From positions 1-51,080 of the IMG/VR virus record IMGVR_UViG_3300050501_000150: a stretch of 51,080 nucleotides of DNA. The stretch is one strand, 5' to 3'. The notes under the pieces were generated by a model. The model was given only the letters and a program-made list of their open reading frames with translations, was not told the DNA's origin and searched no databases. The translations under genes and the position numbers were made by a program. The stretch is from a virus. Positions 128 to 51,080 of this stretch are shown piece by piece. Within the stretch, counting starts at the first letter, position 1, and every line of letters starts with the position of its first letter.

Positions 128-199
128 AAATTCCTGCCCGTAGTTGCGCGCAGCGTCGCGCGCAACGGCTTCGATATCTGTTAATGAATCAGGTTTCAT
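1..199 (-). CDS. 5' part of an 88-aa hypothetical gene split by linearisation of the circle
   Basis: ATG at 199..197 overlaps the terL stop (ATGAAACCTGA). The frame stays open to base 1 and continues at 50953 downwards. Confidence 0.6.
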   Translation of the reverse strand, partial: MKPDSLTDIEAVARDAARNYGQEFDALPPHSQAYWSDLVRELNVGKEQTAAEHAAAQALAAWSEKR

Positions 200-1955
200 T
201 GTTAGGACTCCATCCTCCCCACGGATCGTCTATAGCGTTATTGGCCGGCGTCCAGCCGGACCAAGGATCGTTCGGATCGGCGTTCTTCTTGGCTTCCCTG
301 TTGCGGATCTCAGCTAGCTTGTTCTCCCGCGCCATTCGCCAGGCGTCCCACTCCCATGATCCTTCGGGAACATCGGGCTTGTTGGCAAGCCGCCAGCCTG
401 CGGGCAATTGCGCTTCGAGCTTCTCGTCTTCAGTCAACGACGCCATTTTCGGTCCCCATCGGCAGAAGATACCCCGCAAGCTGTCCATTGCGTCATCAAA
501 CCACTTGTACGGAACTACTTGCGACTGGCCACGCTGGGTCGTTACCGGCGTATCCGCGTACTTGTAAGATGCGAACTCGGCGCGGTGGCGCGCAAGTCCG
601 GCATCGGTCTTAGGGTTAATGAACTCGTCATCGTCAACAACGAGGAACAATAGCGGATGGCCTTTTAACTGCGGCTTGAACGGATGAGGTTTATCAAAAT
701 GCCTCAGCCTTAACATATGCCGCATCTGAGCGATTCCGGCAGTCTTAGCCGAGTCCATCGCTTGAAAGGGCAGCCCGAACTTGACGCGGTACGTGTCGCG
801 CTCCGACTTGGCCTCGTGACTCATTCGCCACAGCTCGACAGCGCCCTTGTAAGCGTCCGTCTCGGCTTTGATCTGCTCGGCGACGGTATCGACTAGCGCG
901 CCTTTGAATGTCCGGCCCCAGTAGAGGAAATAAAGGCCAGGAATACTTGAGTTCTCAGCCGAAGTCGCTATCAGACTGACAACCGCCGGATGTCCGTCTG
1001 TTGATCCCCAGTCGTGGCCGATGGCGCGGCGCCAGTGTTCGGGGATGGCGCGTTGGCCATAGACTCGGGCAAATTCTGACCACGTTATGACGTGGCGTCC
1101 GGGCAGCCCATCCTCGAACATCGGGAATATGTTCCCGCGTTCCCTAACCTGCCAGTCACCTTCAAGCAGTTGAGCGCGTGTAACGTCGTCGAGTTCGCTC
1201 AGCGACTGCTCATAAGACTCTTGATCCAAGTAAGGATTGTCCACCAACTTCGCCGGGACAAAGGCGCGTCCGTCTTTCTCGATGACGGCCAAGTCACGAC
1301 CAAATTCAGGCAGCCAGTTATCGGGTATAAAACGCTGCTGTACCCACTCTGCCCCAATGCCGCCGGGGTTACTGGCCGACCGCATCCGCAAGGGCACATT
1401 CTTCCCTGCCAATCTCCGCAGCCGACTAAAGAGGTAGGTATATTGCCGCTCTGTGAACTGTGTAAGCTCGTCGAATCCGATAAACTGGTACTCAGCGCCT
1501 TGGTATTGGTAGATGTCCGATTCATTTACGAGATATCCAAATGCCAGCACGGCGCCGCTCGGAAATCGCCACTGCTTCTTTTGTTCGTTCCAACTTGCGC
1601 CGGAAGAAGCAAGCCATTCGCGCGCCCTATCCAGCAACGCCCCCGGCTTGGATAAATCTTGAAATGTGCGCCGTAACAGCAATGCGGAATAGCCAGGAAC
1701 GTGGACATATTCAAGCGCCGCCATAAGCAAGGCCGACGACTTACCACCGCCTGCCGCGCCACCATAGAACGCCTCTCTATGCTCACACTCAAGAAACAGT
1801 TTCTGACGCGGCGTCGCTTCCTGCTGCTGGTAGGAGTCCACTGGCTTGTCGCTCAGCTCTTGCGGCTCCGTCGAGAAGTCGAAATCCTTTATCGCAAATT
1901 GTGCCGTAAAGGATGGCAAGGCTGTCTGGCGTGTGCTTGCGTAACCATTCCTCAT
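189..1955 (-). CDS. terL: Terminase large subunit
   Basis: 588 aa. Walker A FYGGAAGGGKS, Walker B FIGFDELTQF, and a C-terminal nuclease-like region (IGHDWGSTDGHPAV). Followed by the head genes across the junction. Confidence 0.93.
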   Translation of the reverse strand: MRNGYASTRQTALPSFTAQFAIKDFDFSTEPQELSDKPVDSYQQQEATPRQKLFLECEHREAFYGGAAGGGKSSALLMAALEYVHVPGYSALLLRRTFQDLSKPGALLDRAREWLASSGASWNEQKKQWRFPSGAVLAFGYLVNESDIYQYQGAEYQFIGFDELTQFTERQYTYLFSRLRRLAGKNVPLRMRSASNPGGIGAEWVQQRFIPDNWLPEFGRDLAVIEKDGRAFVPAKLVDNPYLDQESYEQSLSELDDVTRAQLLEGDWQVRERGNIFPMFEDGLPGRHVITWSEFARVYGQRAIPEHWRRAIGHDWGSTDGHPAVVSLIATSAENSSIPGLYFLYWGRTFKGALVDTVAEQIKAETDAYKGAVELWRMSHEAKSERDTYRVKFGLPFQAMDSAKTAGIAQMRHMLRLRHFDKPHPFKPQLKGHPLLFLVVDDDEFINPKTDAGLARHRAEFASYKYADTPVTTQRGQSQVVPYKWFDDAMDSLRGIFCRWGPKMASLTEDEKLEAQLPAGWRLANKPDVPEGSWEWDAWRMARENKLAEIRNREAKKNADPNDPWSGWTPANNAIDDPWGGWSPNNET

Positions 1956-15027: not shown

Positions 15028-15056
15028 TACCTGCCTAACAAGTTTTTCAAAAAAAA

Positions 15057-15900: not shown

Positions 15901-16096
15901 TTAGCCTCACCAACCCCAGAGGAAAGGATACGAATGCGCTCGCCCCCACAGTCCCCAATGCTCACTCATCCCTGATCTTGGTTCGCTTGATCTTTTAACG
16001 CGGCTGAAAAACCCCACAGCCAAACATGCCGAAAAGTCGCAATAAGTAAGCAAGCGGGCTGCTTTGTTTTGGAAATAAAAAACAAGGAGTCCATCA

Positions 16097-16354
16097 TTGA
16101 AAAAATCATACATAGTTGTCTCATCGCGTCTTGAAATAGACGAAGGCGCGGAGGTGATCACGGCCGGGCGAGGGGAATCGAATATTAAGCCCGGGTCTTT
16201 TTGCGTGGTCAAACTCGGTTCAATTATCACGTATGGGCGGTTTTTCCCGAGTCTCGCCGGTTCCGACTGGCTCGTTCAGCCGGGACGCATGGTGCGAATT
16301 GTCGGGAAGGCGGTAATCGAAATATTGGCCCTGGCGATAATGATCTCGCCATGA
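16097..16354 (+). CDS. Hypothetical 85-aa protein coupled to the integrase (degenerate S24/LexA-C-terminal-like?)
   Basis: TTG start 7 nt after AAGGAG. Its stop overlaps the int ATG (ATGA). Beta-rich pattern IKPGSFCVVKLGSIITYGRF...LVQPGR. Confidence 0.5.
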   Translation: MKKSYIVVSSRLEIDEGAEVITAGRGESNIKPGSFCVVKLGSIITYGRFFPSLAGSDWLVQPGRMVRIVGKAVIEILALAIMISP

Positions 16355-17469
16355 TCGACAAACGCTACTCAGCAAAACACCGGCGCAAAATGTGGGGCTT
16401 CGACGAGCGGTTTCTCGACGGCGCTGGACGCAAGAAGCGCGTGCGGCGATACGAGTTCGAGACACGCGACGAAGCCGAAGAAGTGGTTGCCGCACTGAGA
16501 CGAGCGGAGAGGGAAAGGGAGTACGGCTTAGCGCCGCTGATCAATCGGCCGACACTGCAAGAGCTAGTTGAGAAGCGGATTCCCATGATCGCAGCCAAAG
16601 CGGAGCGCACACGCGCGAAACGTATTCTCTATACCTGGCTGTCTCTGATCGATCAGAGAATCAGGGTGGACGAAATCAAAACCGCCACCATTCGCGTCTA
16701 CGTCGAGAAGCGCCAGGCGGACGGGCGGCCACCGTCATCGATCAACAGGGAATTGGCGACGATCGCCGCCACGCTGAATCAAGCAGGAGAAATATTTTCA
16801 GAGTTGGAGCAGTGGAAGACGCCGAAGATGCCGCGACTGAAGGTGATCAAAAGCCGACGCGAGCGATTGATCTCTGACGATGAATACAGGCAGATCGTCG
16901 CCCACCTGCGCCGGCCAATGGATGAGATGGACGGCCCGCCGCCGAATCGTCCGAACGCCTATAAGTGTCGAATCCGCTGCGCCCAGATATTCGAGTTTGC
17001 GATGGCTACCGGCGCCAGGCACGGTGAGATCGTGGCGCTGAAGTGGATGGACATTTCATGGGAGCGGGGAAAGATACTGATCTATCAAAGCAAGACAGAT
17101 CACTATAAGGAGATCCCGTTGAGTTCGTCGCTGATCAGGATTCTGAACGAGCGCAAGCCGGCAGTGGGGACCTATGTATTCACGAAGAACGGCAGGATCT
17201 TTCTCACGTTCTATAAGTTTCTGCGGGCTGCCTGTGAACATATCGGCATCCCCTACGGTCGATGGGAAGAGAATGGGTTGATACTTCATTCCGCGCGCCA
17301 TACTGTCACGACCCATATGATCGAGGCGGGTCTCGACTATGACACGATCGGCTCGATCACCGGTCACAAGGCGAAGGAACTGATAGCGCATTATGGGCAC
17401 AAGCATCCTGGATCTGTGGCTAGAGCTGCCGCAGCTCTGGAGGAAATGAATAAACGGCGCGAAAAGTAG
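16351..17469 (+). CDS. int: Tyrosine recombinase (phage integrase)
   Basis: ATG at 16351. Catalytic signature TGARHGEI (R), HSARHT (HxxR), GHK..LIAHYGH (Y). Confidence 0.93.
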   Translation: MIDKRYSAKHRRKMWGFDERFLDGAGRKKRVRRYEFETRDEAEEVVAALRRAEREREYGLAPLINRPTLQELVEKRIPMIAAKAERTRAKRILYTWLSLIDQRIRVDEIKTATIRVYVEKRQADGRPPSSINRELATIAATLNQAGEIFSELEQWKTPKMPRLKVIKSRRERLISDDEYRQIVAHLRRPMDEMDGPPPNRPNAYKCRIRCAQIFEFAMATGARHGEIVALKWMDISWERGKILIYQSKTDHYKEIPLSSSLIRILNERKPAVGTYVFTKNGRIFLTFYKFLRAACEHIGIPYGRWEENGLILHSARHTVTTHMIEAGLDYDTIGSITGHKAKELIAHYGHKHPGSVARAAAALEEMNKRREK

Positions 17470-19389: not shown

Positions 19390-20040
19390 ATGCGATTACT
19401 TGATTTGTTTTGTGGTGCTGGCGGTTGTTCGGCTGGCTATCAACACGCGGGCTTTTGGGTTCGTGGCGTCGATTGCAAGCCGCAGCCGCGATACGTCGGT
19501 GAAGAGTTCATCCAGGGAGACGCGCTTGAATATCTGTCGAGCCTGATTGATTCGGGAGAGATCGAAGAGTTTGACGCTATCCACGCATCGCCGCCTTGTC
19601 AGGCGTACAGCATCATGCGGAAAAAATTCCCTGACCGCGACTATCCCGATTTATACATTGCAACGCGCTCGCTCCTGTCTGGCTTAAAACATCCCTGGGT
19701 AATTGAAAACGTGATCGGCTCCCCGCCTGGACCGTCAATCATTTTGTGTGGCAACTCTTTTGGACTTGGAACCTATAGGCATAGGAGATTCGAGAGCAAT
19801 ATCGCGCTTCTTGCGATGCCCCATAGCCCACACCGAATTAAAAGCGTGAGGCAGGGCTATGGCGCGTATAACGGGGAGATGATGTCAGTTACCGGAGATC
19901 TCAATTCACAAAAATTCTTTGATGCGGCAAAGAAAGCGATGGGCATTGACTGGATGGAGCGCAAAGAACTCTCGCAGGCGATTCCGCCAGCCTATACGGA
20001 ATACATCGGGCGTCAGTTGATGATCGCCCTCGATTCTTAA
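19390..20040 (+). CDS. Small DNA (cytosine-5) methyltransferase
   Basis: 216 aa. Motif I DLFCGAGG, IV PPCQAYS, VI VIENV, X-like QAIPPAYTEYIG. Confidence 0.85.
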   Translation: MRLLDLFCGAGGCSAGYQHAGFWVRGVDCKPQPRYVGEEFIQGDALEYLSSLIDSGEIEEFDAIHASPPCQAYSIMRKKFPDRDYPDLYIATRSLLSGLKHPWVIENVIGSPPGPSIILCGNSFGLGTYRHRRFESNIALLAMPHSPHRIKSVRQGYGAYNGEMMSVTGDLNSQKFFDAAKKAMGIDWMERKELSQAIPPAYTEYIGRQLMIALDS

Positions 20041-30760: not shown

Positions 30761-33103
30761 TTACCTGAGTCTTTCAAGGCTCGCCCGCTGCAAAGTGATG
30801 ACGTTTGACGCGGAAGCCGTTCCCCATTGTATCGTGACGTCCACCAACTGATTCGCCGTAAAATCAATCGCCACAGCGCCCAGACTGCCCACGAAAAACA
30901 CCGGCGCCGCAGTCCCGGCGTTGATCGGCATCAGAGTGCCCCAGATTTCGAGCCTCACAGACCCGGCCGCGCCGATTGAATCAACGTGAATGTAAGCATC
31001 CAAGAACGATCTACCATTCGCCGTCCCGGTCGTGGCGTTGAAAGCCGTGGAATCGCCAATACTTGTGGCGCCCAACTTAACTCGCCAACGTATCGTTGGG
31101 GTTCCGGTCGTGGCATATGGGGCGTCGAGGTGCAGGCGATACAGAGAGCCAGCGGCCGCGGAGCCTGCCTCTATCGTGAGAGTTCCGCCGGTTGCCGCCG
31201 TCGCGCCGGTGAAGAGAGAGGTTTCAGTTACGGTATTGGCGATCGAGGTGCCATTTGTCGTGTTCGTGTAGAGGTTGGTAGAGATCGGGAAACGCTGGGT
31301 GGAGAGATTTTGCAGCGTCGAGCCGCTGGCGGTTTTCAGCGGATAGCGGAGAGAAACCAGGCCGGGAATCGCGTTTCCGGTTCCCTTGCCACCAGAAATA
31401 TCTAAATTAGCCCCGGCAATATTGCTGCCACTGCCGCCGGTCCCGAGGATTACGGCTCCTGCGGGAGAAGCATTGACGGTCCCGTTGCCAAGATAGGCCT
31501 CCGGCGTGTTGGTGACGACGAGTCGATCAGTGGCGTTGGTCTGTATAACGACAGACGCGGTACTCTTCGAGGCTAGATTTAACTGTACCGTGCCATCATC
31601 CCCTTGCGCGCTGAGACTGACCGCGTTACCTGTGGCGCTATTGGTCGCCCTCAGTTGGTTGACTGCTGATCCAGTGGCTGGCGTCTCTATGACCTCGTTG
31701 CCGGAACTGTCGTCAATCGAAGTAGTGATTCTTGGTCGAGTGGCGCGCAGGTTGGTCGAACCGAACGTGACGTTTGTTCCGTCCGTGCTGGCGCCAGTGG
31801 CGACAGACCACGTATCAACACCTGTCCGAAACGCGGCGCCGTTAGAGGCAAGCCCCTCGACGGCCGCAAGGTCGTTGGCCAATACCAGTGTTGGATCGCC
31901 TGCAATTCCAGCCGGATTGGTTATCGTAATTCCTGCCGCCGGCTGCGTCAGAGTGCGAGTGGTCCAGGTATTCGCCGCCGTGCGCGTGGCGAGGCCGGTT
32001 GTGGCAAGTCCCTCAACGGCGTTCAGATCGTTCGCTAAAACGAATGTCGGATCTCCAGCGGTCCCGGCCGGGTTCGTGATCGTGAAACCCGCCGCAGGCG
32101 CTTGCAGCGTTCTCGCTGCCCCTGTTCCCGCTCCGGTCCTTGCCCATATGCCATTCGTCGAGTTGCTTGCCAGCGCGTCGAGATCGGCGTCCGCGGTGAT
32201 ATTGGTTCGGCTGTTGCCTGCGTCATCGGCCGCCGTGAAAGACGTCCCGACGAAGTTGATCGTCTGCCGCTGCGGTAGATTCGACCCTTCTTCTTGGACT
32301 CTGTTTACCCCTGACGGCCCGGCCAGAAACAGCGTATCGCTGGTTATAGTGAATGCCGTGTCCAGGCTGAGCGTGTGCAGGACGTTGCCAGTGGTCTTGT
32401 AGTATAGAAGCTGGTTTGCGCTCCCGCTCGGTAATCTCGCGTCAATCTGGGTTGTGGTGTAGTAGTTGATCGGCGTGGGCGGTCCCGGATTAGGCGGGCT
32501 GTTGAACGTGCAAATCTGCGGCCAGCTTGTTGGCGTGGTCGCGGAGTCAAGCCGAAAGTCCGAGACACAGCCCGGATATGCCTGAATAAAAGCCCCGCCC
32601 GCTGTGTACAACCCCGCAAAGTATCTTGCCGTCTGCACATTGCTGTTGGTGGTGGCAGGCAGCGTAATCTGTGGAATATGCGCCACGTTCTGCGCGCCGT
32701 CAGTAATAACGCTCACGCCATAACGCCTGAACCATGCCGAACTCCCCGGCGCGCCAGATTGAGCGACATAGGTTTCCCCGCTTGGCGTGAACGGCGCCGT
32801 TACGTACACCCGCAAATGGACGAACTTATGCAGGGTTCCGGTGACAGTGCCTGAACTCTCAGCATAAGCCGTCGTCAGCGTTAGCGCCGATCTGCTCGTC
32901 ACAGTCGCCACGGTATAAGCGACGCCAGTGGAGAATGTGATCTTGAACCCGCCGAGGCCGACGACGCTTTGCGGTAAGAAATTCGTTCCGGTAACGGTGG
33001 TTAATCCAAGCGTGACCGTCATGCCCGTCAGGCTTAGATCCGTCCCAATCCCGCTGGGTTGAAAGCCCGATATTGTCGCCGCGCCGATTACTATATCGCT
33101 CAT
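30761..33103 (-). CDS. Tail fibre/spike protein
   Basis: 780 aa, Thr/Gly/Ala-rich. Three tandem ~50-aa repeats (ITITNPAG.AGDPT.VLANDL.AVEGLA...) typical of phage fibres. Confidence 0.85.
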   Translation of the reverse strand: MSDIVIGAATISGFQPSGIGTDLSLTGMTVTLGLTTVTGTNFLPQSVVGLGGFKITFSTGVAYTVATVTSRSALTLTTAYAESSGTVTGTLHKFVHLRVYVTAPFTPSGETYVAQSGAPGSSAWFRRYGVSVITDGAQNVAHIPQITLPATTNSNVQTARYFAGLYTAGGAFIQAYPGCVSDFRLDSATTPTSWPQICTFNSPPNPGPPTPINYYTTTQIDARLPSGSANQLLYYKTTGNVLHTLSLDTAFTITSDTLFLAGPSGVNRVQEEGSNLPQRQTINFVGTSFTAADDAGNSRTNITADADLDALASNSTNGIWARTGAGTGAARTLQAPAAGFTITNPAGTAGDPTFVLANDLNAVEGLATTGLATRTAANTWTTRTLTQPAAGITITNPAGIAGDPTLVLANDLAAVEGLASNGAAFRTGVDTWSVATGASTDGTNVTFGSTNLRATRPRITTSIDDSSGNEVIETPATGSAVNQLRATNSATGNAVSLSAQGDDGTVQLNLASKSTASVVIQTNATDRLVVTNTPEAYLGNGTVNASPAGAVILGTGGSGSNIAGANLDISGGKGTGNAIPGLVSLRYPLKTASGSTLQNLSTQRFPISTNLYTNTTNGTSIANTVTETSLFTGATAATGGTLTIEAGSAAAGSLYRLHLDAPYATTGTPTIRWRVKLGATSIGDSTAFNATTGTANGRSFLDAYIHVDSIGAAGSVRLEIWGTLMPINAGTAAPVFFVGSLGAVAIDFTANQLVDVTIQWGTASASNVITLQRASLERLR
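31805..32269 (-). repeat. Three tandem ~50-aa coding repeats inside the tail fibre
   Basis: Residues ~279-332, 333-383 and 384-433. Repeats 2 and 3 are nearly identical in motif order. Confidence 0.75.
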
Positions 33104-38532: not shown

Positions 38533-39069
38533 ATGGCTAAGCCAAATCCTACGCTACCCCCACTAAGCGAACAAGACATCCAGCGCTTCCACTCTAAAAT
38601 CAAAAAGGGAACACCCGATGACTGCTGGCCCTGGCTGGGCGTGCAAGACAGAGATGGATATGGACTATTCAAGGTCACTAATGCCCGTTTAGGCGTTCGC
38701 AAAATGTTGAAAGCCCACCGAGTGAGCTATTACCTACACCGTAAACAAGATCCAAGTGGCTTTTTAGTTCTACACTCTTGTGATAATCCGCCATGTAACA
38801 ATCCCGCACACCTGAGGACGGGTACAACCCTAGATAACTCCCGCGATCAGGTAAGCAAGGGACGGCATATGTACGGCGCGAAGCAGAAAAACGCTGTATT
38901 CACCGATGCGCTAGTACGCAAAATCCGCGAAATGCATGAGAAAGTTGCCAAGACGATGAAACCCGGCAACCGTGGTAAATTTCGTCGACGTGTAGCAAGA
39001 CTGTTCAACGTTAGCGAAGTTACCATTCAAAAAATCGTTCATAAAAAACAGTGGAGGCATACTCTCTAA
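38533..39069 (+). CDS. Free-standing HNH homing endonuclease
   Basis: 178 aa. CWPWLG..DRDGYG...AHRVSYYL...LHSCDNPPCNNPAHLRTGT..DN. Opposite strand, lower GC, overlaps the neighbouring stop by 4 nt. Confidence 0.9.
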   Translation: MAKPNPTLPPLSEQDIQRFHSKIKKGTPDDCWPWLGVQDRDGYGLFKVTNARLGVRKMLKAHRVSYYLHRKQDPSGFLVLHSCDNPPCNNPAHLRTGTTLDNSRDQVSKGRHMYGAKQKNAVFTDALVRKIREMHEKVAKTMKPGNRGKFRRRVARLFNVSEVTIQKIVHKKQWRHTL

Positions 39070-40807: not shown

Positions 40808-41615
40808 CTTTCGTTCCTCCAGATTTTGTATGCGATCCCATGAAGTGAAACTTTCCCCACTGCTGAGCTACCGGGTCGAGCGTGTGGAATGTGTGGGAAT
40901 GGGTCTTCATAAAGTCGTCAATCGCCCCACGAATACCCTTTCGCCAGGTTTCGTCGCGCTTTTCGACGAGGTCTTCAGTCCGTTTGGCGATTAACTGATC
41001 AGACGGCGCGAAATCATCGTTTTTGGCGCGATCGCGCAGCCATTTCATTCGCCTGCAACGCTCTAAATCCTCTTCGCACGGCTCCCTGTATCCACCCAAG
41101 CACGGCTCACCTTTCACGGCGCCGCGCCCGTTGCAACACAGCTTGTCGTGGTAGGCGATACAGAAGACAGCAGTGTAAAACCCGTCATCAGGGATAGGCC
41201 CGAGAATGTCGATTCGCTCGAATCCATCCCAATACCAGCGGGCATTCTCCCAACGATCGCGGCTGCTGAGTTCGGCATTTGTATGCAACTCCTCGACGAA
41301 GAAGCGAGGCGTCCCGACTTCTACAAGCTCATCCCAGAACTCGACTAAGCCCGTCGCTGCGTTAATGCGTTCGTGGCGGACGCTGTTCCGCCAGAATGGG
41401 AATTTCATCCGCCACGATCCGCAAACTATCATCCGATTCGCGGGATCCTGCCCCCAAGACACCCTCAGATTGGGACGTCCTGAAATGTCCAGTCCCGCGA
41501 TCTTGGTAAGTTCCTTTTGGAAACTGCCCAAATCAACAGGACTGGGTTGATTCCCGGCTTTTACGATCTCCGACTCAACGTCGAAGACCTTATGCGATCT
41601 ATGCTTTAACTTCAT
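40767..41615 (-). CDS. Hypothetical Cys-rich protein in the head module
   Basis: 282 aa. Cluster C..x7..CC..x10..C..x7..C..x6..C. Gly/Asn-rich tail. Confidence 0.6.
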   Translation of the reverse strand: MKLKHRSHKVFDVESEIVKAGNQPSPVDLGSFQKELTKIAGLDISGRPNLRVSWGQDPANRMIVCGSWRMKFPFWRNSVRHERINAATGLVEFWDELVEVGTPRFFVEELHTNAELSSRDRWENARWYWDGFERIDILGPIPDDGFYTAVFCIAYHDKLCCNGRGAVKGEPCLGGYREPCEEDLERCRRMKWLRDRAKNDDFAPSDQLIAKRTEDLVEKRDETWRKGIRGAIDDFMKTHSHTFHTLDPVAQQWGKFHFMGSHTKSGGTKDANNGNGSVSGGG

Positions 41616-41893
41616 TCAGCTATAAGCAGCCAGGCATCAAAAGTGACGCTGGTTGAGACTGATGCCGTTAGCGTGAAAACGGCATTCGTGTCAGTCCCGC
41701 TTGTTGAGAGGTTGGTCTGCGCCGACTGGCCGGCCACGCCGGAAATGACGTAGCGGCCCCGTTTCGGCACGATTGTCGCCGTGTCGCCGACAGTTCCGCC
41801 AGCGATACGCCAGATTTCGAGGTGAAGCCCGCCGATCGGGATTGGCAACCCGACAGCCCCACCCTCCACCTGAGTTGATGCAAGTGTCGCCAT
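41612..41893 (-). CDS. Capsid decoration-like paralog 3 (divergent)
   Basis: 93 aa. MATLASTQV...EIWRIAGGTVGDTATIVP...TFDAWLLIAE. Confidence 0.65.
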   Translation of the reverse strand: MATLASTQVEGGAVGLPIPIGGLHLEIWRIAGGTVGDTATIVPKRGRYVISGVAGQSAQTNLSTSGTDTNAVFTLTASVSTSVTFDAWLLIAE

Positions 41894-41897
41894 GGGT

Positions 41898-42200
41898 TTA
41901 TCTCCTTCCGATCAGCCACACGTCGAAATTCACGTTAGTCGCCATGGTGGCGGTCAACGTAAGCGTGACGTTCGTGTTGGCGTTGGTTGTCAGGTTATTG
42001 GTCGAGGACTGCTGAGCCTGGACCATGCGGATATCCGTAATGAAAAACGGCGTAATCGCCACCGTGTCGGGGTTGGTTGTAGCACCCGCGCCGGAGACTC
42101 GCCAGACTTCAATTAAAAGTCCCGCCTCCCCCTGGCCGAACGGCTGCTCAGCCAAACCCGAGACATTGCGGGTAATGTTGGTCGAGCCGAGTGTTGCCAT
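41898..42200 (-). CDS. Capsid decoration-like paralog 2
   Basis: 100 aa. MATLGSTNITRNV...IEVWRV...NFDVWLIGRR. Confidence 0.65.
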   Translation of the reverse strand: MATLGSTNITRNVSGLAEQPFGQGEAGLLIEVWRVSGAGATTNPDTVAITPFFITDIRMVQAQQSSTNNLTTNANTNVTLTLTATMATNVNFDVWLIGRR

Positions 42201-42204
42201 CCGC

Positions 42205-42498
42205 CTACCTCCTTCCGATCAGCCACACGTCAAAGTTGACGTTGGTTGCGGCCGAGGCTGTCAACGTAATGACAACGTTCGTATTCGCATTGGTAGTCAG
42301 GCCATTTGTGGAGCTTTGTTGAGCCTGGCAGGTGCGAATGTCCGAAAGAAATGTGGGAACGATCGTGCAAGTGTCGCCGACCGTCCCGCCGGGGACGCGC
42401 CAAACTTCCATAAGGAGGCCGGCCTCGCCGTAAGCGAGAGGCTGCTCAAGCAGAGCGGAAACGTTGCGCGTGACGTTGGTTGATCCAAGTGTTGCCAT
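42205..42498 (-). CDS. Capsid decoration-like paralog 1
   Basis: 97 aa. MATLGSTNVTRNV...MEVWRV...NFDVWLIGRR. Lies 12 nt downstream of the capsid gene. Confidence 0.65.
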   Translation of the reverse strand: MATLGSTNVTRNVSALLEQPLAYGEAGLLMEVWRVPGGTVGDTCTIVPTFLSDIRTCQAQQSSTNGLTTNANTNVVITLTASAATNVNFDVWLIGRR

Positions 42499-42510: not shown

Positions 42511-43770
42511 TTAGGCTTGCGCCAATACCTGAGTTGCGAGAGCGGTCACGGCGGCGCGTTTGATCAACGCATGGTCCTTCGGTGAATCCGTCCCGTAGTT
42601 GTAGTGGCTGCCGATGGCGCCGGTCCAAGAATCCGAACCGTAGCCGCCAACGCCGGCGCGCATCCTGATCTCGTTCCCGTCCTCGTTGTAGAGTCCGAAT
42701 TTCTTCTCAACGTACTTCTTAAGCTCTGATTTCACGTTGAGATAAATGCGGTCCTCGTCACAGTCGGGATCGATGTTGAATACGGTGTCACCGTGACCGA
42801 ACGCGTCGAAACTGCCGTCGAACTTCTTGTCACTTCCGTCGAAGCGCTTGTAGTTCTGGCCGAGACGGCGCAAAGCGTCATCCTGCGCCAGACTCATTGT
42901 CGCCATGACAGTCTTGGCTTTACCCACGCCCGCGCGAGCTATGAGCAGGTTCTTGGTCTTGGTGAAATCCGCGACCGCGATGGCCGAGCCGTTAAGGTCA
43001 GTCACCGGCGATTTGAGTTCGGGATAGGTCGAGCGGCTTTGAAGCTGGAATGTGCCAGTGTCGTTATTGACAATATACGGCAGGCCGCGCGGGGTTTTGA
43101 ATAACGAATTCTGCAGCACGAGAATATCGCCATCTGTCTGACCTGACACGGCGGTCGTAGTGATTGACTTGTTCGTCTTGGCCGTCGCCACGATCGTGGC
43201 GCGGTATGTGGCCAGCGTCGAATCGTACCAGTCGTAGCGCTCGCCGATATGGATCTGCGTCGCCCCTTTGGTCGAGCCGAAGCCGGAAAGGGGCGTGTGA
43301 TCAATGGCGTTGTAGAGCAGCGCCGTTGTCGTACCGGACTTGTAGGTAGCCCGCAGCGCCGAGCCGTCGTTGAAGACCTGCCAGTTGGCCTCTTTCATCA
43401 AGGCCATAGTGCGTTTCTCCAGAAACCCGGAGAAACCTTCAATGGCGCTCGAACTGTCGCTGAAATTGCGATATGCGCGCCCGGTAAGCTCGAAAGCCAT
43501 CGTTAAGCTCATTGGGTAGACATACATATCGTCATAGACTTCCGCGCCAGGCTGAGCGAACGATCCGCCGTCACCGATGCCCGACACGCCAGTCGGAGGC
43601 CTGAGATACGAAGGAATGCGAAATCCCTTCCCGTTTACGAACTTTGCGCCGGACTCTTCGCCGAACATGTTATACGTGGCCGTGACCTGCTCGAATTGAT
43701 CGCGCAAGCCACCGGCTGATAACTGTGTCAGCGCCGGCAAGATTGTGGAAATATTTACAGGAACTCCCAT
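42511..43770 (-). CDS. Major capsid protein
   Basis: 419 aa with GGAG SD. Follows the scaffold-like gene. Size and position match P22/T7-like head modules. Confidence 0.7.
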   Translation of the reverse strand: MGVPVNISTILPALTQLSAGGLRDQFEQVTATYNMFGEESGAKFVNGKGFRIPSYLRPPTGVSGIGDGGSFAQPGAEVYDDMYVYPMSLTMAFELTGRAYRNFSDSSSAIEGFSGFLEKRTMALMKEANWQVFNDGSALRATYKSGTTTALLYNAIDHTPLSGFGSTKGATQIHIGERYDWYDSTLATYRATIVATAKTNKSITTTAVSGQTDGDILVLQNSLFKTPRGLPYIVNNDTGTFQLQSRSTYPELKSPVTDLNGSAIAVADFTKTKNLLIARAGVGKAKTVMATMSLAQDDALRRLGQNYKRFDGSDKKFDGSFDAFGHGDTVFNIDPDCDEDRIYLNVKSELKKYVEKKFGLYNEDGNEIRMRAGVGGYGSDSWTGAIGSHYNYGTDSPKDHALIKRAAVTALATQVLAQA

Positions 43771-43787: not shown

Positions 43788-45104
43788 CTACCGCCCTCCG
43801 TACTGAGCCTTCAAGCTGTCTATGTATTGAGGGGAAAGGCGCCCATTCTCCGTAAGAGTAGGTATGCCGCTCCCGTTGACAGCGGTCGAACTCTGTCCAG
43901 TTATTTCGGTTCGATTGGGGATTTGTTGACGTTGCTGTTCGCGGTAGGCCCTGGCGTCCCTGAAAACAGAATCGAGGTTGGAAATCATGCCCCGCATGAC
44001 TTGGCCGAGCCGCGCGTTATATCTCATCGCTGCGGCCCGCGCGTCCCTCTCGTCGGCGCCAGCGGCGAAATGCTCGTTGTTGAGCTTTCGCATAGGCGCG
44101 TTTTGCAGTTTGCTCACGCTGTCTTCATACAGTTTGTGCCACTGCGGATCCGCCAGTAGGGTGGCGTGCGCGCCTTCGAGGATGGACCTATACAACTGCT
44201 GATTCTGTTCTCCGGCCTCCGGGCCGAACGGTTGCCATTTGCTGAGTTGCGCGAGGTGCGCCTTTTCGTATTGGCCGGTGAGTTCATCAACCGCCTGGCT
44301 GCCCTGAGTTTCAGCCTCTTGCCTCGCCTGCCTATAGGCTGTTTCAGCCTGTTGGCGCTGCGTGGCGTCAAGCTGATTGAGCTTGGCCTCACGTTGTAAG
44401 TTGTAAACCAAACTCTCATCAGTCCCTTTATCCACCCATTCAATCAACTGGTTTATAGGGACTTGATTGGCGATCTCGCGCAGTTCTTGCGGAATCCGCG
44501 CCCAATCGTCGGCAGTCAGTTGCCAGGCGCCGGTCGCTGCTTGCGTACTGGGCAACTTGCCCATCTGCTGCAAAACGGCGATCACGTCATCCGGCGCATG
44601 CTGTGCAAGAGTCTCGATTGACGCCCAGTATGCCGGCTGCGCGTCTTTCGCTATGGACTGCCAGAATGGGAGCGCCCCCTCTTGAGGCGTATGGATCAAC
44701 CCATTCACGAATCCCAGCGTCTGCTCGATCCCCTCGAACCCGCCGTATTGATCAAACTTGGCAGACTGATCGCGGAATTGCTTTAATTCCGCCTTCATCT
44801 GCCGCGCTTCTGCCCTCGCGCTCTTGATGGCTTCGACGAGGCCGGGTACCTTGGCCTGATCCAAGTTCGGATCAGCCGTCATCCCCTGTAGGTCGTCGTC
44901 GCCATCAGGTATAGCGGACTTCGCTTCCGGCTGTTCGTCAAATGCCCAACCTGCGGAGAGTTCTTCCGGGGTTGCAGTCGGAGCGGCTTGCCCCGAGACT
45001 TCAGCCTGTCCGCCCGTCGCACCGTCGCCACCCGCGCCAGTGGCCCCAACGTCGCTGGGAGAGGGTGTGCCGCCCTCTGTGTTCGCGTTTAATTCGTCTG
45101 ACAT
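43788..45104 (-). CDS. Scaffolding-like protein
   Basis: 438 aa, acidic, Q/A/E-rich and helical. Lies between the portal region and the capsid gene. Confidence 0.55.
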   Translation of the reverse strand: MSDELNANTEGGTPSPSDVGATGAGGDGATGGQAEVSGQAAPTATPEELSAGWAFDEQPEAKSAIPDGDDDLQGMTADPNLDQAKVPGLVEAIKSARAEARQMKAELKQFRDQSAKFDQYGGFEGIEQTLGFVNGLIHTPQEGALPFWQSIAKDAQPAYWASIETLAQHAPDDVIAVLQQMGKLPSTQAATGAWQLTADDWARIPQELREIANQVPINQLIEWVDKGTDESLVYNLQREAKLNQLDATQRQQAETAYRQARQEAETQGSQAVDELTGQYEKAHLAQLSKWQPFGPEAGEQNQQLYRSILEGAHATLLADPQWHKLYEDSVSKLQNAPMRKLNNEHFAAGADERDARAAAMRYNARLGQVMRGMISNLDSVFRDARAYREQQRQQIPNRTEITGQSSTAVNGSGIPTLTENGRLSPQYIDSLKAQYGGR

Positions 45105-45113: not shown

Positions 45114-45299
45114 TTAGTAGGTAAGCTTGGTCTTTCTGGCCTGTCGTCGGCGCTGCGTTCTGGTCCCCGAATGCTTTCCGGTTACAGGCGCGCCAGGATG
45201 TTTTGAATTATAAATGCGGGCCGCTTTCGATTGTGCGGCGCCGCAGGACATTCCCTCGCCCGCGAACTTATCCCGCATGACTTCGTATGGTTTCGGCAT
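45114..45299 (-). CDS. Small basic protein
   Basis: 61 aa ending in TRTQRRRQARKTKLTY. Confidence 0.5.
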   Translation of the reverse strand: MPKPYEVMRDKFAGEGMSCGAAQSKAARIYNSKHPGAPVTGKHSGTRTQRRRQARKTKLTY

Positions 45300-47223
45300 T
45301 TGCGGCCTCCCCTCGTTGCTTCAGCCATTCATCTATCGCCATATAGACTTTGGTGATCTGGCCGTTTACGATCTTTGGAACTGAGATAACCTCTTCCCGG
45401 TGGCCGATGACAACGTTCGTCGCCAAAGCGGCTTTCAAACCGGAATCAGCGAGGGTTCTCCAGAATCCGATATCCGCGTCCACTCTCCCCTCTCCCCAAT
45501 CACCTTCGGCGTTCGGCTTTTCCCAAAACCACGGCTTGCGCATTTGCTCAAATACGCGCCGGCGGAAGACGGTTAGCCCGAAATGTCCGGCGTTCGCCGG
45601 AAACAGTCCGATACTCCAATCAATCGCGCCGTCTGTGCCTACAAGAATGTCCGTCGTATTGCCGCGCTTGATTTGAGTCGGGATCACCGCGTCAATGGTC
45701 GGGTTTTCATAGAGAAGCCTGATCATCTCGATCAGGTCGGCGGGTCTTGCGAATGTATCGTAGTCGGCTGTGACTATTACATCCGCTTCGTTGTCCTCAT
45801 CGTCGAGGATCTGCTTGATGCAGCGGCTTAAAGAATGATGCCAGTACACGCCAAACCCACGCCCGCGTTGCGCTCTCACCGCCAACGCGATCTCCGTGAT
45901 GATGTCCGCCGAGTCCAGATAGCCGATTCGAGGAGTGGACATTGCAATGGCGACATTCACCGTTACGTTGTCTTTAACAACGTCTTTCTCTGTCCGCCAC
46001 TGGCCGGCCACAAACCGATGCCCGTTACCGTTACCATTTGATTCTGACTCCGGTAAGGGTTCGACTAACAACCCGGCCAGATCGCGCCTGACGCAAATGA
46101 GGTTGCATTGAGTTCGGCAAACAACTTCATATCCGCGCGCCTCGACAAGAAACTTCATGGCCAAGCGTCCGGCCTGATCCAATACACCATCCTTATCCAG
46201 CGTCGGGGCGTTCGGCTCGGGGATGTACATCGGGTCCGCGTCGGGGTTGAACTCGACGATGAGAACACGGGGCTTGAGTCGCGCCATAGAATTTATGACG
46301 TGGTATTCCTGGCCGTCGATGTCCAGCACGAGGAGGTCAAGGTCTAACGGCAAAGGCGAAGTGCGGCCAGCTAAATTATCATCAAGCGTGTCTCCCTTAT
46401 TTAATTCGATTCGCTTTTGTAGAGTGATAACATTCTTGTTTTCTCCATACCGATCTTCTAGCTGGCGATAAAACTTCTCATCGGCCTCGATCTGTACCGA
46501 CATCCACCCCTGATCAATCAATCTCCGCGTATTGCTGAAAAACAGTCCATCGCCTGCGCCGCACTCGACACACCATTTATTCGCCGTCCCAATGCGCTCA
46601 AATATCGCCTCAATCGCCCCGTCCTCACCGTATTGACTGTAAACGTTGATCGGCTTGATTGACTTGGCGAAAGCCTCAAAGCGCGGGTCCATTGGTCTGT
46701 CTTCGACGCTGTAGAGATTGCGGTGGCCGTTAAGCGGATTGATGTGTCGTGGCGATGGTTGCTGCTTCTGCCCCGTCAAATTCAAGCTCACCGCCAAGCT
46801 GGCGCAGTCCTTTACTTCCGACTCCCACGTTCGGATATGTTCAAGCCCGGCATCAATCATCAGCTTGGACAGTTTTGCCCTATCGAATAACGCCTTATGG
46901 AAGTCGTTCTCGTCGATTTGTCCCCCGTAGACATAACCGTCAGCGATAGCATGAAAGCCGTTGGCGACGTAGGATTTGGCGATCAGCGCGAAATCCGGCA
47001 CAGCAACCTTCAAGACCCCGCCAGGCTTCAACACTCTTACCCAGTCCTTCAGGACGTCCAGCGTCTGAGCGTGCGGGAAATGTTCGAGAATGTGGCTTGC
47101 GTAAATCTCATCGACGCTATTGTCTGAGTATGCCAGCGGAAATGCGGAATCACCGAATTTGGCGTCAACGTTGGTGTAGCCCTTCATGGTGATCCCGTCA
47201 CCGCTGCCGATATTTAGTTTCAA
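45268..47223 (-). CDS. Tri-domain enzyme: class I SAM-MTase + FkbM-like MTase + GT-A glycosyltransferase
   Basis: 651 aa. LNIGSGDG...ASHILEHF...LKPGGVLKVAVPDF; CVECGAGDG...LVLDIDGQEYHV...LIVEFN; VNVAIAMSTPR...TADYD...DADIGFWR...VIGH. TTGA coupling to the portal stop. Confidence 0.75.
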   Translation of the reverse strand: MKLNIGSGDGITMKGYTNVDAKFGDSAFPLAYSDNSVDEIYASHILEHFPHAQTLDVLKDWVRVLKPGGVLKVAVPDFALIAKSYVANGFHAIADGYVYGGQIDENDFHKALFDRAKLSKLMIDAGLEHIRTWESEVKDCASLAVSLNLTGQKQQPSPRHINPLNGHRNLYSVEDRPMDPRFEAFAKSIKPINVYSQYGEDGAIEAIFERIGTANKWCVECGAGDGLFFSNTRRLIDQGWMSVQIEADEKFYRQLEDRYGENKNVITLQKRIELNKGDTLDDNLAGRTSPLPLDLDLLVLDIDGQEYHVINSMARLKPRVLIVEFNPDADPMYIPEPNAPTLDKDGVLDQAGRLAMKFLVEARGYEVVCRTQCNLICVRRDLAGLLVEPLPESESNGNGNGHRFVAGQWRTEKDVVKDNVTVNVAIAMSTPRIGYLDSADIITEIALAVRAQRGRGFGVYWHHSLSRCIKQILDDEDNEADVIVTADYDTFARPADLIEMIRLLYENPTIDAVIPTQIKRGNTTDILVGTDGAIDWSIGLFPANAGHFGLTVFRRRVFEQMRKPWFWEKPNAEGDWGEGRVDADIGFWRTLADSGLKAALATNVVIGHREEVISVPKIVNGQITKVYMAIDEWLKQRGEAANAETIRSHAG

Positions 47224-49913
47224 ACACCTGCTCCCATTGTCTGTTGTTTCTGTTGTGGCTGCCGTCCGCCCATCTGCTTCTGATCAGGATTCTTATTCTT
47301 CTTGTCGTTCGGCGGCCCGCCCTGTTCTTCCCCTGCTCCCGGCATAGGCTGCCCTGCCATACTGACCATCCCAGTCAATTGCGCCTCTGCTATAAGACCT
47401 TCCACGTGTCTATAAATCGCCGCCTTGACGCCCGCGCGCTGTTCCGGCGGCGCTTCCTTGCCTTCGTCCGTGGTAAGCCAGTCGCGGTAGACGTTGATTG
47501 CGGCTAAGTGGCCAAGTTCCTCGATCTCGATTGGCGGCTGGAGTATGCCAAGCAGCATCTGGCCAGCTTCCGCCATGGGATCGACCGGGACTTCCATCAT
47601 TTGGCCAGTCATCGGATCGGCCGCCATTTGGGTCGGCGGCATTCCGGCCATTGCCATTTGCAGCAGCGGCGCTGCCTGGGCCATCTGGTCTATGCGCTGG
47701 CGCGCAGTTTCAGCCGCTGCGGTGTAGTCCTCGGCCCCTAGATCAACGTCGTAAGTCTCAGTGATCTGCTCGACCAACCCTGGCATTTCCTGCATGGCCA
47801 TCTTGAGGCCAATCAAGCCGCCGACATCGAGCAATAGCTCTTTAAACCGCTGGCGCCGTTCGAGGTTGGTTTGGGGCAAGTAGGACTCAGGAACGACCTC
47901 GGCAAACAACTCGACGGCGATATCCGCCGCGCTGAGCCACACACCGTCTTGCTTGCCTCTCTTGCCTGCGAGGCTTACGTAAATCTCATCTATGCAGTAG
48001 ACGCGGAATAATTCGAGGATAATCTCCGCGCCTCTTCTATCGGCTTCGGCCTTTAATGCTAATTGTGGCGCGAACAGGCTTTGGCTATTGGCAGATGCAA
48101 TCTGCGCGCCGGTGGCCGTCTCGTTGTTGACACCAGGCAAACCGCCGGAGAAGTCCGTAACCCTTGACGCCTTCTGACAGAAGAAATCAAGTTGCTGGCT
48201 ATAACTGAAATGCGCCTGTGATGGCGGCTGTGGCTGCAATTGGTGTACGGCGTCCTGTAGCCGCTTGTTTTCGAGGCCGGTAGTGTTGACCGGGATGTTT
48301 TTAAGGGGATTGGCTAGATAGGCGCTGACGCCATTCGGCAGCAGCGTCTCATCATACAGCGTCGCGGGCGTCGCAGCCGTGCGTAGAAGCGTATAAATCA
48401 GGCTCATAGTCAGGTTGTACTGACGGTTGCCTTCCAACATGTCCTCTGTCCCCGAGCCGAGCGACGAGAGCGCCCGCATCCTGTACACCTGGCCCACCCA
48501 GAACTGCTTGTGATGCTCGTTCCGCATCTCAACAACGCCATCCACGCCCTGAATCCAGCACAGATAAAGGCCGTCTTTGAATGCGTCGATCAACTTCGTT
48601 CCGGCCGGGATCCTCATCCCGCTTACCGTCTGGTAATCCTTCTTGATGACGCAGCGGTCATACATCGCAGGGTCGAGCCAGATTTGGATAAAGTCCGCTG
48701 TGGGTTCAGCATTAGGACTCTTACCCGATCCCCTGGCCTGGCCTGACGATGCGAATGTGGAACGTTTGAGGTCGTCGGCCGCGTCCAAACCTGCGTAATC
48801 GCCCTTGCTGGCTTTAAATTTGATCTCCGGAAACTTGCTTTGGAGTATTGAGAGACGGATCCGCCGCGTCCGCACCAGATACGGCGATTCGTGCGGCTGG
48901 AATTGGATATCGTGTTTTAGCTCGAACGCCGGGACGGATTCACAACAGATTGAGCCGTGTTCGATGCTCTCATAGCCTGTTACGGCTTCGACTTGGAGGG
49001 GTTCGGGCTGCTCGACGTCGATGTTGGGCGATCCGCAGTCGGGACATTTGGTAGGCGGCGGGGCCACTCCATCCGCTGGTAGGCCGGGTGGGACGCCCGC
49101 GCCCATACCCTGACTATCGCCCGCCGAAATATATCCCGCATTTGGTTGTCCATTTAATCCTCCTTGCGCTCCGGGTTCCAGTCCGAGCTGTGGCGCAGCA
49201 ACCATCTCTGCTCCGCTTGCGTCAGGCTCAAATGGCCGACCAACCGGGCCTGCCGCAGCTTCCGATCCAGCTCCTCCAAGTCCAACGGGGCCGCTTCCTC
49301 CACACTCGGCGCAGAAGTAGCTTGGCTCTCCGAACTGGACTTGCTGTGGTTCGACTTTCGGTCTTCTGGCATAGCTCTTTACGTCCTTGCTGTAATAATA
49401 GTATCTCGCATACTTCCCACACTGAGCGAGCGTCGCCTCGCCTTGCTTGAATGTCTCAGTATACAGCTTACGCTCGTAAAACTGCTGCACATTCGACGCC
49501 GCCTTAGACGCGCCGACCGCCTGATCCGCGTCGCTCACTGGACGCCATTTAACATCCGTGGACGATTGCGTCCATTTGGCCTTGATGTTGTCCGAATAGA
49601 AGCCGACGAGGTTGAGACTGTAGACAGGTGAATCCGTCCTATCCGGCAATGGCACGGCGCGCCAGCCTGTGCCATACTTGGATCGCCGCAGGATCTGCTT
49701 GCCCTCGATAAAGAGAAAGATCATTTCCCACAGCAACACGGAATCCTTCCAGACACTGCCGTTCTCTTCCTCTAATTCCTTGCGGCAGTCCTTGAACCAG
49801 TCTTCGTCTATGTAGACGGACTGATCATTGGCCTGATCGTAGGCTAACTGTTCAAGCGGCTTGCTCGGCGCGAGGTTTGGCGCGTCGCTGTATGCGGTAG
49901 CTAATACTGCCAT
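47220..49913 (-). CDS. Portal protein with inserted split zinc ribbon
   Basis: 897 aa. First large gene after terL, with a Met/Gln/Ala-rich C-terminal tail as in T7-type portals. CAEC...(~90 aa Gly/Pro/Ala)...CPDC insertion. Confidence 0.6.
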   Translation of the reverse strand: MAVLATAYSDAPNLAPSKPLEQLAYDQANDQSVYIDEDWFKDCRKELEEENGSVWKDSVLLWEMIFLFIEGKQILRRSKYGTGWRAVPLPDRTDSPVYSLNLVGFYSDNIKAKWTQSSTDVKWRPVSDADQAVGASKAASNVQQFYERKLYTETFKQGEATLAQCGKYARYYYYSKDVKSYARRPKVEPQQVQFGEPSYFCAECGGSGPVGLGGAGSEAAAGPVGRPFEPDASGAEMVAAPQLGLEPGAQGGLNGQPNAGYISAGDSQGMGAGVPPGLPADGVAPPPTKCPDCGSPNIDVEQPEPLQVEAVTGYESIEHGSICCESVPAFELKHDIQFQPHESPYLVRTRRIRLSILQSKFPEIKFKASKGDYAGLDAADDLKRSTFASSGQARGSGKSPNAEPTADFIQIWLDPAMYDRCVIKKDYQTVSGMRIPAGTKLIDAFKDGLYLCWIQGVDGVVEMRNEHHKQFWVGQVYRMRALSSLGSGTEDMLEGNRQYNLTMSLIYTLLRTAATPATLYDETLLPNGVSAYLANPLKNIPVNTTGLENKRLQDAVHQLQPQPPSQAHFSYSQQLDFFCQKASRVTDFSGGLPGVNNETATGAQIASANSQSLFAPQLALKAEADRRGAEIILELFRVYCIDEIYVSLAGKRGKQDGVWLSAADIAVELFAEVVPESYLPQTNLERRQRFKELLLDVGGLIGLKMAMQEMPGLVEQITETYDVDLGAEDYTAAAETARQRIDQMAQAAPLLQMAMAGMPPTQMAADPMTGQMMEVPVDPMAEAGQMLLGILQPPIEIEELGHLAAINVYRDWLTTDEGKEAPPEQRAGVKAAIYRHVEGLIAEAQLTGMVSMAGQPMPGAGEEQGGPPNDKKNKNPDQKQMGGRQPQQKQQTMGAGV

Positions 49914-50889: not shown

Positions 50890-51080
50890 GACTTCTTATT
50901 CCTGATCTTCTTCTCTGCCGGCTCAGCTTCAGGCTCCGGCAATTCCGCCGTGTCCCGTTTCTCGCTCCACGCCGCGAGCGCCTGCGCGGCCGCGTGTTCA
51001 GCCGCCGTTTGCTCTTTGCCTACGTTCAGCTCTCGAACAAGATCAGACCAGTAGGCTTGAGAATGCGGTGGCAGGGCGTC
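50886..51080 (-). CDS. 3' part of the 88-aa junction-spanning gene
   Basis: Same frame as 1..199 after removing the 127-bp duplicate. Its stop TGA overlaps the next ATG. Confidence 0.6.
   Translation of the reverse strand, partial: DALPPHSQAYWSDLVRELNVGKEQTAAEHAAAQALAAWSEKRDTAELPEPEAEPAEKKIRNKKS
50954..51080. repeat. Terminal direct repeat, right copy (identical to 1..127)
   Basis: Base-by-base identity with 1-127. Confidence 0.97.

Follow-up and report, generated by a model that had tools for sequence, protein, structure and literature searches.

Why should a phage keep, among the genes that build its head, an enzyme that looks made to transfer sugars and methyl groups? The question is raised by IMG/VR virus record IMGVR_UViG_3300050501_000150, positions 1 to 51,080 of which (51,080 nt) were analysed here and are called the window. 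On its minus strand, in the late operon and upstream of the major capsid gene, an open reading frame (ORF) at 45268..47223 (stop codon included) encodes a 651-residue protein that profiles and models resolve into a methyltransferase, an FkbM-type methyltransferase and a GT-A glycosyltransferase. We judge it likely, on balance, that this enzyme glycosylates a capsid-surface protein in the cytoplasm and O-methylates the sugar. Genomic association gives strong support to a predicted glycosylation of the virion with a methylated sugar, with small Thr-rich proteins as the putative acceptors, and points to the family as a candidate for virus-encoded virion glycosylation that appears separate from, and unrelated in sequence to, the mycobacteriophage enzymes.

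A fusion of two methyltransferases and a glycosyltransferase

A preliminary description of this locus had read the gene as translationally coupled to the one before it, and this is borne out. In the tetranucleotide TTGA, the TTG with which the gene starts (47223-47221) runs into the TGA (47222-47220) that ends an upstream 897-residue ORF. The last part of that ORF contains a Shine-Dalgarno-like GGGAG (47231..47235, minus strand), 8 nt ahead of the TTG. Two relatives, L247 and L023, show the same 4-nt overlap with a large upstream ORF. The TTG start is fixed because homologs conserve the motif KLN(L/I)GSG at their extreme N-terminus, which rules out initiation at the internal Met13. No promoter- or terminator-like site above chance was found at the borders of the gene, nor any transmembrane segment in its product (maximal Kyte-Doolittle 19-residue mean, 1.35).

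The AlphaFold2 model of the full-length protein, made with 52 homologs (mean predicted local distance difference test, pLDDT, 87; predicted template modelling score, pTM, 0.46), consists of three compact domains, residues 1-158 (D1), 169-389 (D2) and 403-641 (D3), with disordered linkers between them. The model fits domains arranged as beads on a string, with which the pTM is consistent. The limits are close to those proposed earlier (~1-150, ~200-390 and ~410-651), and the motifs quoted at that time are all present and conserved in the three domains, conservation being scored over 52 full-length homologs. When the whole model was searched against PDB folds with Foldseek, proteins with two methyltransferase domains ranked at the top.

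D1 (46750..47223, minus strand) is by profile, motif and fold a class I S-adenosylmethionine (SAM)-dependent methyltransferase of the Methyltransf_11 type. Its residues 28-71 match Methyltransf_11 (PF08241) with E 1.8e-7 and 32.1 bits, for a cut-off of 21.2, and 35 of the 52 homologs match this profile; phrog_6636 ('methyltransferase') is matched with E 3.7e-10. Motif I, LNIGSGDG (residues 3-10; 47194-47217, minus strand), and D20 are at least 90% conserved, and the conserved residues include G6 and G8 of that motif as well as H44, E47 and H48. The model is confident over D1, and Foldseek returns many SAM methyltransferases for it, e.g., 1vlm, 3cc8 and 6uv6. The best sequence matches, which are weak, are 3bus, 6uv6 (a D-glucose O-methyltransferase) and NF041255 (a mycofactocin oligosaccharide methyltransferase).

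D2 (46057..46719, minus strand) is FkbM-like. It has a conserved ECGAGDG motif (residues 220-226; 46546-46566, minus strand) and conserved D296 and D301, its top structural match in BFVD is an FkbM methyltransferase (E 1.2e-11), and it matches TIGR01444 with E 3.8e-4 and 20.9 bits, below the cut-off of 37.7. The FkbM profile PF05050 is matched by 43 of the 52 full-length homologs at E <= 0.01, with 1e-9 as the best value.

D3 (45301..46017, minus strand) is, as modelled, a GT-A fold glycosyltransferase, its CAZy family being unassigned. A D3-only model (pLDDT 84, pTM 0.83) has as its best Foldseek match the A197 protein of Sulfolobus turreted icosahedral virus (STIV; PDB 2C0N; E 3.4e-7, TM 0.69), followed by the collagen galactosyltransferase COLGALT1/GLT25D1, LH3, Mimivirus R699, SpsA and B4GALNT1. 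For COLGALT1, LH3 and R699 the E-values range from 5e-7 to 2e-5, and the target TM-scores are low (0.2-0.3), these targets being multi-domain proteins. Two motifs are invariant in the 52 homologs, D487-Y-D489 (45757-45765, minus strand) and the DxD motif D582-A-D584 (45472-45480, minus strand), and SxPR (429-432) and H608 are also conserved. Pfam GT2 profiles give 13 matches among the 52 homologs, 8 to Glycos_transf_2 (PF00535) and 5 to Glyco_trans_2_3 (PF13632), in tallies that may overlap (best E-value, 3.9e-8). Profile searches of PDB with the whole family and with D3 gave weak matches only, of which A197 was the best at E 0.12; in this weak alignment D584 falls on D151 of A197, and the mutation D151E delays STIV replication (PMC10551542). 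The three assignments first made from motifs thus hold up in profile searches and in Foldseek comparisons of predicted structures.

The enzyme is a core gene of phage head modules

Is such a gene a lasting part of the head module or a sporadic insert? ORFs were called in 87 target-selected loci and searched with capsid, portal, terminase and protease seeds. A capsid gene was detected in 67 of these loci, and in every one of the 67 the enzyme gene is on the same strand, 0.1-5.7 kb away. The 62 HK97-type loci have the order large terminase (TerL) - portal - protease - capsid - enzyme, in which the enzyme gene comes after the capsid gene; 52 of these loci have, between the two, a gene for a protein that we call famA. 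It corresponds to phrog_5707 and has 140-190 residues and 13.5% Thr; it found no match in Pfam or in a PDB profile search, and in PHROGs only phrog_5707 itself (function unknown). Five target-selected loci have the gene order of the window. A third type of head module, TerL phrog_2 - portal phrog_156 - capsid phrog_9953 - a protein of ~160 residues - enzyme, is found in L066 and L025, two loci that at first seemed to be without a capsid gene. The head modules with relatives therefore belong to at least three capsid lineages that are unrelated to one another.

In the window itself, the gene of the major capsid protein (42511..43770, minus strand) matches phrog_14242 with E 4.3e-12, in agreement with its earlier labelling, and is directly followed by three tandem paralogous genes for small Thr-rich proteins of 97, 100 and 93 residues (famB; 41612..42498, minus strand). 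Their richness in Ser, Thr and Asn had been pointed out before and is confirmed, at 25-32% (Thr 14-17%) versus 16% (Thr 6.4%) in 14 large ORFs; their distance from the enzyme gene is 2.8-3.7 kb and not the 3-5 kb given then.

The association also appears when loci are chosen by the neighbours. From an IMG/VR search based on famA alone (sub-alignment A4), which gave at least 517 loci or contigs with a famA relative, 80 were fetched; D3 is encoded downstream on the same strand in 74 out of the 74 that have at least 412 bp of downstream sequence, usually ~100 bp away or directly after D1. The famB search in IMG/VR found only 3 loci, a number too small for statistics, and the window lineage was chosen via its capsid protein, which gave 25 metagenome loci (41-72% capsid identity) and L247. 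Two famB genes follow the capsid gene in 24/24 of these capsid-selected loci with downstream sequence, and D3 is present in 14/14 that reach far enough upstream. In a closer sub-lineage the D3 gene lies between a 9xx-residue ORF and a scaffold-like gene, and in a more distant one a D2-D3 gene lies just upstream of the 9xx-residue ORF. Because of these two complete counts, we conclude that the enzyme gene is conserved as part of the core of the head module, rather than inserted sporadically. No neighbour accompanies it more faithfully than the gene for a small Thr-rich protein that directly follows the capsid gene.

The small proteins carry conserved short motifs: a nearly invariant E-S-D-T-x-T...S-M/F-T in famA (e.g., L004, 9401-9904), whose ESDT-x-T part contains T61 and T63, and G-D-T in famB, where D42 and T43 are invariant. 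These acidic-Thr motifs are candidate modification sites. That the small proteins are the acceptors is a serious possibility, to which we give a little less than even weight. The same chemistry could be directed at the major capsid protein (or at portal or tail proteins), with the small proteins acting as decoration or cement, or as adaptors that present the capsid to the enzyme. Such an acceptor would be in line with the glycans of mycobacteriophages, which sit on capsid and tail-tube subunits (PMC12619734, PMC12363180), with STIV A197, which is thought to glycosylate the capsid protein (PMC10551542), and with the constant proximity of the enzyme gene to the capsid gene as well. However, the small protein is the most constant neighbour of the glycosyltransferase, usually at the short spacing seen in the famA-selected loci, and the capsid protein of the window has no obvious Ser/Thr-rich tail; we regard a capsid-protein acceptor as unlikely.

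The same linkage bears on a very different hypothesis, in which the enzyme would help the phage escape restriction by glycosylating and methylating modified DNA bases, in the manner of T4 and of further phages whose hydroxymethylcytosine or hydroxymethyluracil is glycosylated. DNA glucosylation is indeed what phage glycosyltransferases are best known for, according to PMC12619734, which cites Pyle 2024. Yet the gene is in a late structural operon and not in a replication module, its linkage in every lineage is with the capsid gene and with a small protein, and Methyltransf_11 and FkbM enzymes are small-molecule or sugar methyltransferases, not DNA methyltransferases. Moreover, no thymidylate-synthase-like hydroxymethylase or base-modification gene was found among 20 further ORFs of the window, a scan that covered its larger ORFs. 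We consider DNA hypermodification extremely improbable and return to glycosylation of the virion.

The glycosyltransferase is constant and the methyltransferases vary

How widespread is the enzyme, and which part of it is constant? At least 377 homologs are present in a set of 5.8 billion proteins, at least 204 IMG/VR contigs encode a relative, and 708 representative clusters contain D3 at E <= 1e-30. Among the best 120 homologs, D1-D2-D3 is the commonest architecture (62), followed by D2-D3 (26), D1-D3 (23), D2-D1-D3 (6) and a few others, and stand-alone D3 proteins of 220-280 residues are also common. D3 is present in 119 of these 120 homologs, at the C-terminus throughout, and the methyltransferase content varies; the glycosyltransferase is therefore the constant element and the methyltransferases are interchangeable accessories. 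The preliminary description had implied that the arrangement is unprecedented, and this is not supported: relatives are many, the three-domain form is one of several, and a cassette of comparable position is known from phage Corndog. Our literature searches, incomplete in coverage, gave no paper that describes the fused family or that reports phrog_5707-type proteins as its partners.

This combinatorial pattern matters for a further hypothesis, that the methyltransferase domains methylate capsid components at Lys, Gln or carboxyl groups of their side chains, giving two independent modifications of the capsid. The substrate of a class I methyltransferase cannot be read from its fold, and methylation of a phage structural protein is known, by a host enzyme (PMC13445384). 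But the methyltransferase domains are nearly always fused to the glycosyltransferase and combine freely around it, the weak best matches are sugar O-methyltransferases, and both PBCV-1 A064R (PMC7826918) and Corndog gp35 pair a methyltransferase with glycan building. We find side-chain methylation highly improbable. Methylation of the sugar is favoured because of the fusion to the glycosyltransferase, the combinatorial domains and the weak likeness of D1 to sugar O-methyltransferases, and variable methyltransferases around a constant glycosyltransferase fit an accessory tailoring of the sugar.

The scan of GTDB genomes gave 16 loci with D3, 13 of which also encode famA or famB (11 of the 13 with an HK97-type capsid gene); the remaining three showed neither, one of them being at a contig start. 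The other 64 GTDB loci contain D1 only, or D1 plus D2, and are ordinary cellular methyltransferases. The metagenome-assembled genomes (MAGs) with D3 belong to Planctomycetota, Myxococcales, Alpha- and Gammaproteobacteria, Gemmatimonadota, Armatimonadota, Patescibacteria and Heliobacteriaceae. In one Heliobacteriaceae MAG, CAYXVZ01, two contigs (L169, 105 kb, and L170, 66 kb) each have a D2-D3 gene with two famB genes 6-8 kb downstream; they are possible prophages of the window lineage and a lead to its host. MAGs of Caulobacteraceae, too, contain prophage relatives, as do those of Heliobacteriaceae, Myxococcales and Planctomycetota.

Prophages with sugar-modifying enzymes call to mind lysogenic conversion, i.e., a 'moron' that modifies a host envelope polysaccharide (O-antigen, capsule or S-layer glycan) to block superinfection or change the serotype, as Gtr-type and epsilon15-type systems do. 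The phage is temperate, polysaccharide clusters typically contain GT2-like and FkbM enzymes, cellular genomes commonly encode D1-like methyltransferases, and one relative has further glycosyltransferases nearby. Against this, the gene is coupled within the late head operon, far from the integrase gene and with no promoter or terminator of its own; the enzyme has neither a membrane segment nor a flippase partner; it is a core gene of its lineage beside the capsid gene in three unrelated capsid types; and the GTDB genome scan never found D3 outside phage head modules. Lysogenic conversion is in our opinion very unlikely, and we keep to modification of the virion.

The relative with further sugar genes, L001, is HK97-type. 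Downstream of its three-domain gene, 13276-17298 encodes Glyco_transf_9-like, Glycos_transf_1 and Glycos_transf_2-like proteins and a separate FkbM methyltransferase, which suggests a more elaborate glycan. Its famA gene is duplicated (7134-7637 and 7650-8156).

Comparison with known systems

Are there precedents for such an enzyme? To our knowledge, virion glycosylation encoded by a phage has been shown experimentally only in a few mycobacteriophages. It was reportedly described by Freeman et al. in 2023, involving gp35 and gp36-38 of Corndog and gp110 of Che8. In mycobacteriophages, glycosylation of the virion blunts recognition by antibodies. Beyond the viruses of bacteria, chloroviruses are known to glycosylate their virions, and STIV is suspected of doing so.

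The Corndog cassette is the closest system by function and position. Its order, which we verified, is portal gp34 (PF04860) - TylF-type O-methyltransferase gp35 - gp36 - GT2-like gp37 - GT25-like gp38 - protease gp39 - capsid gp41. It resembles our locus in that a phage methyltransferase and GT-A-type glycosyltransferases are encoded in the head operon, between portal and capsid genes, and are co-expressed with the structural proteins. PMC11600133 and PMC12363180 report that this cassette modifies the virion, at the capsid and the tail tube. The differences are nonetheless several. First, the methyltransferase and glycosyltransferases of Corndog are separate genes, whereas the enzyme of the window is one polypeptide. 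Second, the methyltransferase is of the TylF/Methyltransf_24 type in Corndog, and of the Methyltransf_11 and FkbM types in the window. Third, the reported acceptors are the C-termini of capsid and tail-tube proteins and not a small protein encoded after the capsid gene. Fourth, the hosts are Actinobacteria, whereas relatives of the window enzyme occur in MAGs of many phyla.

A197 of STIV is the closest system in structure, as the best structural match of D3 and its best, albeit weak, sequence match in PDB; the two share a motif, G-x-G-(F/L)-T...P-(W/A)-F...(E/D)-D-(I/V)-Y-F. In contrast to the window enzyme, A197 is a single domain of 197 residues with no methyltransferase, from an archaeal PRD1-like virus; its acceptor is likewise unproven, and its sequence match to D3 is not significant. 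The closest system in architecture, compared by description, is A064R of Paramecium bursaria chlorella virus 1 (PBCV-1), a 638-residue glycosyltransferase-glycosyltransferase-methyltransferase that builds and methylates the capsid glycan (PMC7826918). In both cases one viral polypeptide of ~640 residues joins three catalytic domains for sugar transfer and O-methylation. A064R has two glycosyltransferases and one methyltransferase in another order, whereas the window enzyme has two methyltransferases and one glycosyltransferase, and A064R belongs to a eukaryotic giant virus and extends an N-glycan. Finally, the collagen-type GT-A enzymes (COLGALT1/GLT25D1, LH3 and Mimivirus R699), which match D3 in structure, glycosylate protein side chains, and gp38 of Corndog also matches Pfam GT25. 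Their acceptor differs, being hydroxylysine, and no hydroxylase is present in the window; D3 is likened to them by fold and not by family.

A proposed function and the arguments against it

What would the enzyme do during infection? It would be made together with the head proteins as part of the late operon, in keeping with its coupled start and the lack of promoter- or terminator-like sites at its borders, and it would remain soluble in the cytoplasm. There, the GT-A domain would draw on a nucleotide-sugar of the host, with the DYD motif holding a divalent cation and D584 as the likely catalytic base, and would move the sugar onto a phage structural protein. The likeliest acceptors would be the small Thr-rich proteins (here 41612-42498), with the capsid protein as the alternative. 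Once in place, the sugar would be O-methylated by D1 and D2, at a single position or at two. The outcome would be a virion surface with methylated glycans, and its chemistry might be changed in ways that, by analogy with mycobacteriophages and chloroviruses, could include shielding, stabilisation or altered adsorption. Of all this, the analysis shows the identity of the domains, the conservation of the catalytic motifs, the place of the gene inside the operon and its tight, recurrent linkage to the capsid gene and a small Thr-rich protein; the donor, the acceptor, the methylation of sugar rather than of protein, and the benefit are what we infer. More generally, we tentatively propose, at slightly under an even chance, a widespread and previously undescribed module. 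It would be composed of a dedicated glycosyltransferase resembling A197, to which up to two sugar methyltransferase domains may be joined, and a small Thr-rich acceptor encoded after the capsid gene, and it would have been acquired by at least three unrelated capsid lineages and be present in prophages of many bacterial phyla.

A number of points weigh against this proposal. Some concern the enzyme: D2 of the window matches PF05050 with E 1.3e-3 and 19.4 bits, below the cut-off of 22.7, and the window protein matches no Pfam glycosyltransferase at E <= 1. The parallel with Corndog is one of analogy only, D3 having no detectable sequence similarity to its glycosyltransferases gp37 and gp38 (BLASTP versus gp38, E 0.2; hhalign versus gp37, probability 0.1%). 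GT-A and GT2-like enzymes use lipid-linked or saccharide acceptors more often than proteins. Other points concern the acceptors: the small Thr-rich proteins (famA, famB and the L066/L025 type) are alike in size, position and Thr content and are not detectably homologous (hhalign probability for famA versus famB, 0.4%), and their presence in virions is hinted at solely by the L025 protein, which weakly matches phrog_29386 ('virion structural protein'). Still others concern the association: all co-occurrence sets consist of positive cases and hence give no view of co-absence, and the adjacency of the genes could come from a shared need for late expression and not from an enzyme-substrate pair. 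Lastly, no cultured relative came to light: when 50,697 GenBank phage records were searched by tblastn with the enzyme, the capsid protein and a famA protein, nothing useful emerged, the sole match, 34% to D1, being on one unannotated jumbo contig.

The genome and late operon of the window

The first 127 nt of the window (1-127) recur unchanged as its last 127 nt (50954-51080); it is therefore a complete genome of 50,953 bp, either circular or terminally redundant. The L247 contig is also exactly 50,953 bp, despite ~53-57% protein identity, which is probably a coincidence. The phage is temperate, since an integrase gene is present at 16201-17469. Read over the junction, the late operon on the minus strand has the order TerL, small ORFs, the 897-residue ORF, the enzyme gene, a 61-residue ORF, a 438-residue ORF, the capsid gene, the three small paralogs and further structural genes; L247, which has the same order with no junction in between, confirms this linear order.

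TerL (189..1955, minus strand) is identified by phrog_979 (E 3e-65). On the other side of the circular junction it is followed by the head module, in which the 897-residue ORF (47220..49913, minus strand) is the first large ORF after TerL. This ORF and the 438-residue one had been called portal and scaffold. For the former we keep the label 'portal position', and a proven portal identity was dropped: Pfam, PHROGs, a PDB sequence search and precomputed Pfam annotation of 73 homologs were all without a match, as was an hhalign comparison with an alignment of 37 HK97-type portals. Its residues ~195-300 are a Gly/Pro/Ala-rich low-complexity insert between CAECGG and CPDCGS, a CxxC...CxxC pair resembling a zinc ribbon, with a weak rubredoxin match (E 0.84). 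The 438-residue Gln/Glu/Ala-rich protein (43788..45104, minus strand) is scaffold-like in position and composition, and its homologs keep the same position in five related loci recovered by the survey. Between it and the enzyme gene, the very basic 61-residue ORF (45114..45299, minus strand) shares 32 nt with the 3' end of the enzyme gene and has a homolog in the same place in L023 (E 1e-22).

Elsewhere in the structural operon, a 780-residue structural protein (30761-33103, minus strand; weak match to phrog_697, 'structural protein') contains 30% Ser, Thr and Asn, as much as the small proteins encoded after the capsid gene; it could be a further glycan acceptor, or simply a fibre. An HNH endonuclease gene (38533-39069, plus strand; PF13392, E 7e-7), within this otherwise minus-strand operon, looks like a homing-endonuclease insertion. 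A DNA helicase of 632 residues (9351-11249, minus strand; phrog_16) is fused to an N-terminal HNH or endonuclease VII-like domain. A 216-residue ORF (19390-20040, plus strand) resembles the C-5 cytosine DNA methylase profile over its initial 80 positions alone and may be a truncated or split methylase.

Implications

Our study describes an enzyme family whose glycosyltransferase, small Thr-rich neighbour and capsid gene are tightly linked, and even if our functional inference is wrong, this three-way linkage still needs explaining. If it is right, self-glycosylation of the virion would be a common trait of environmental phages, beyond a few actinophages, and the (E/Q)-S-D-T-x-T and G-D-T motifs would mark a new type of cytoplasmic O-glycosylation site. 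The family would then provide a simple sequence marker for uncultured phages with sugar-coated, methylated capsids, and a compact tool that glycosylates and methylates a defined small acceptor with one polypeptide. It would also open a route to the role of phage capsid glycans outside the animal immune system, be it in stability, in adhesion to mucus or particles, or in the evasion of host surface traps.

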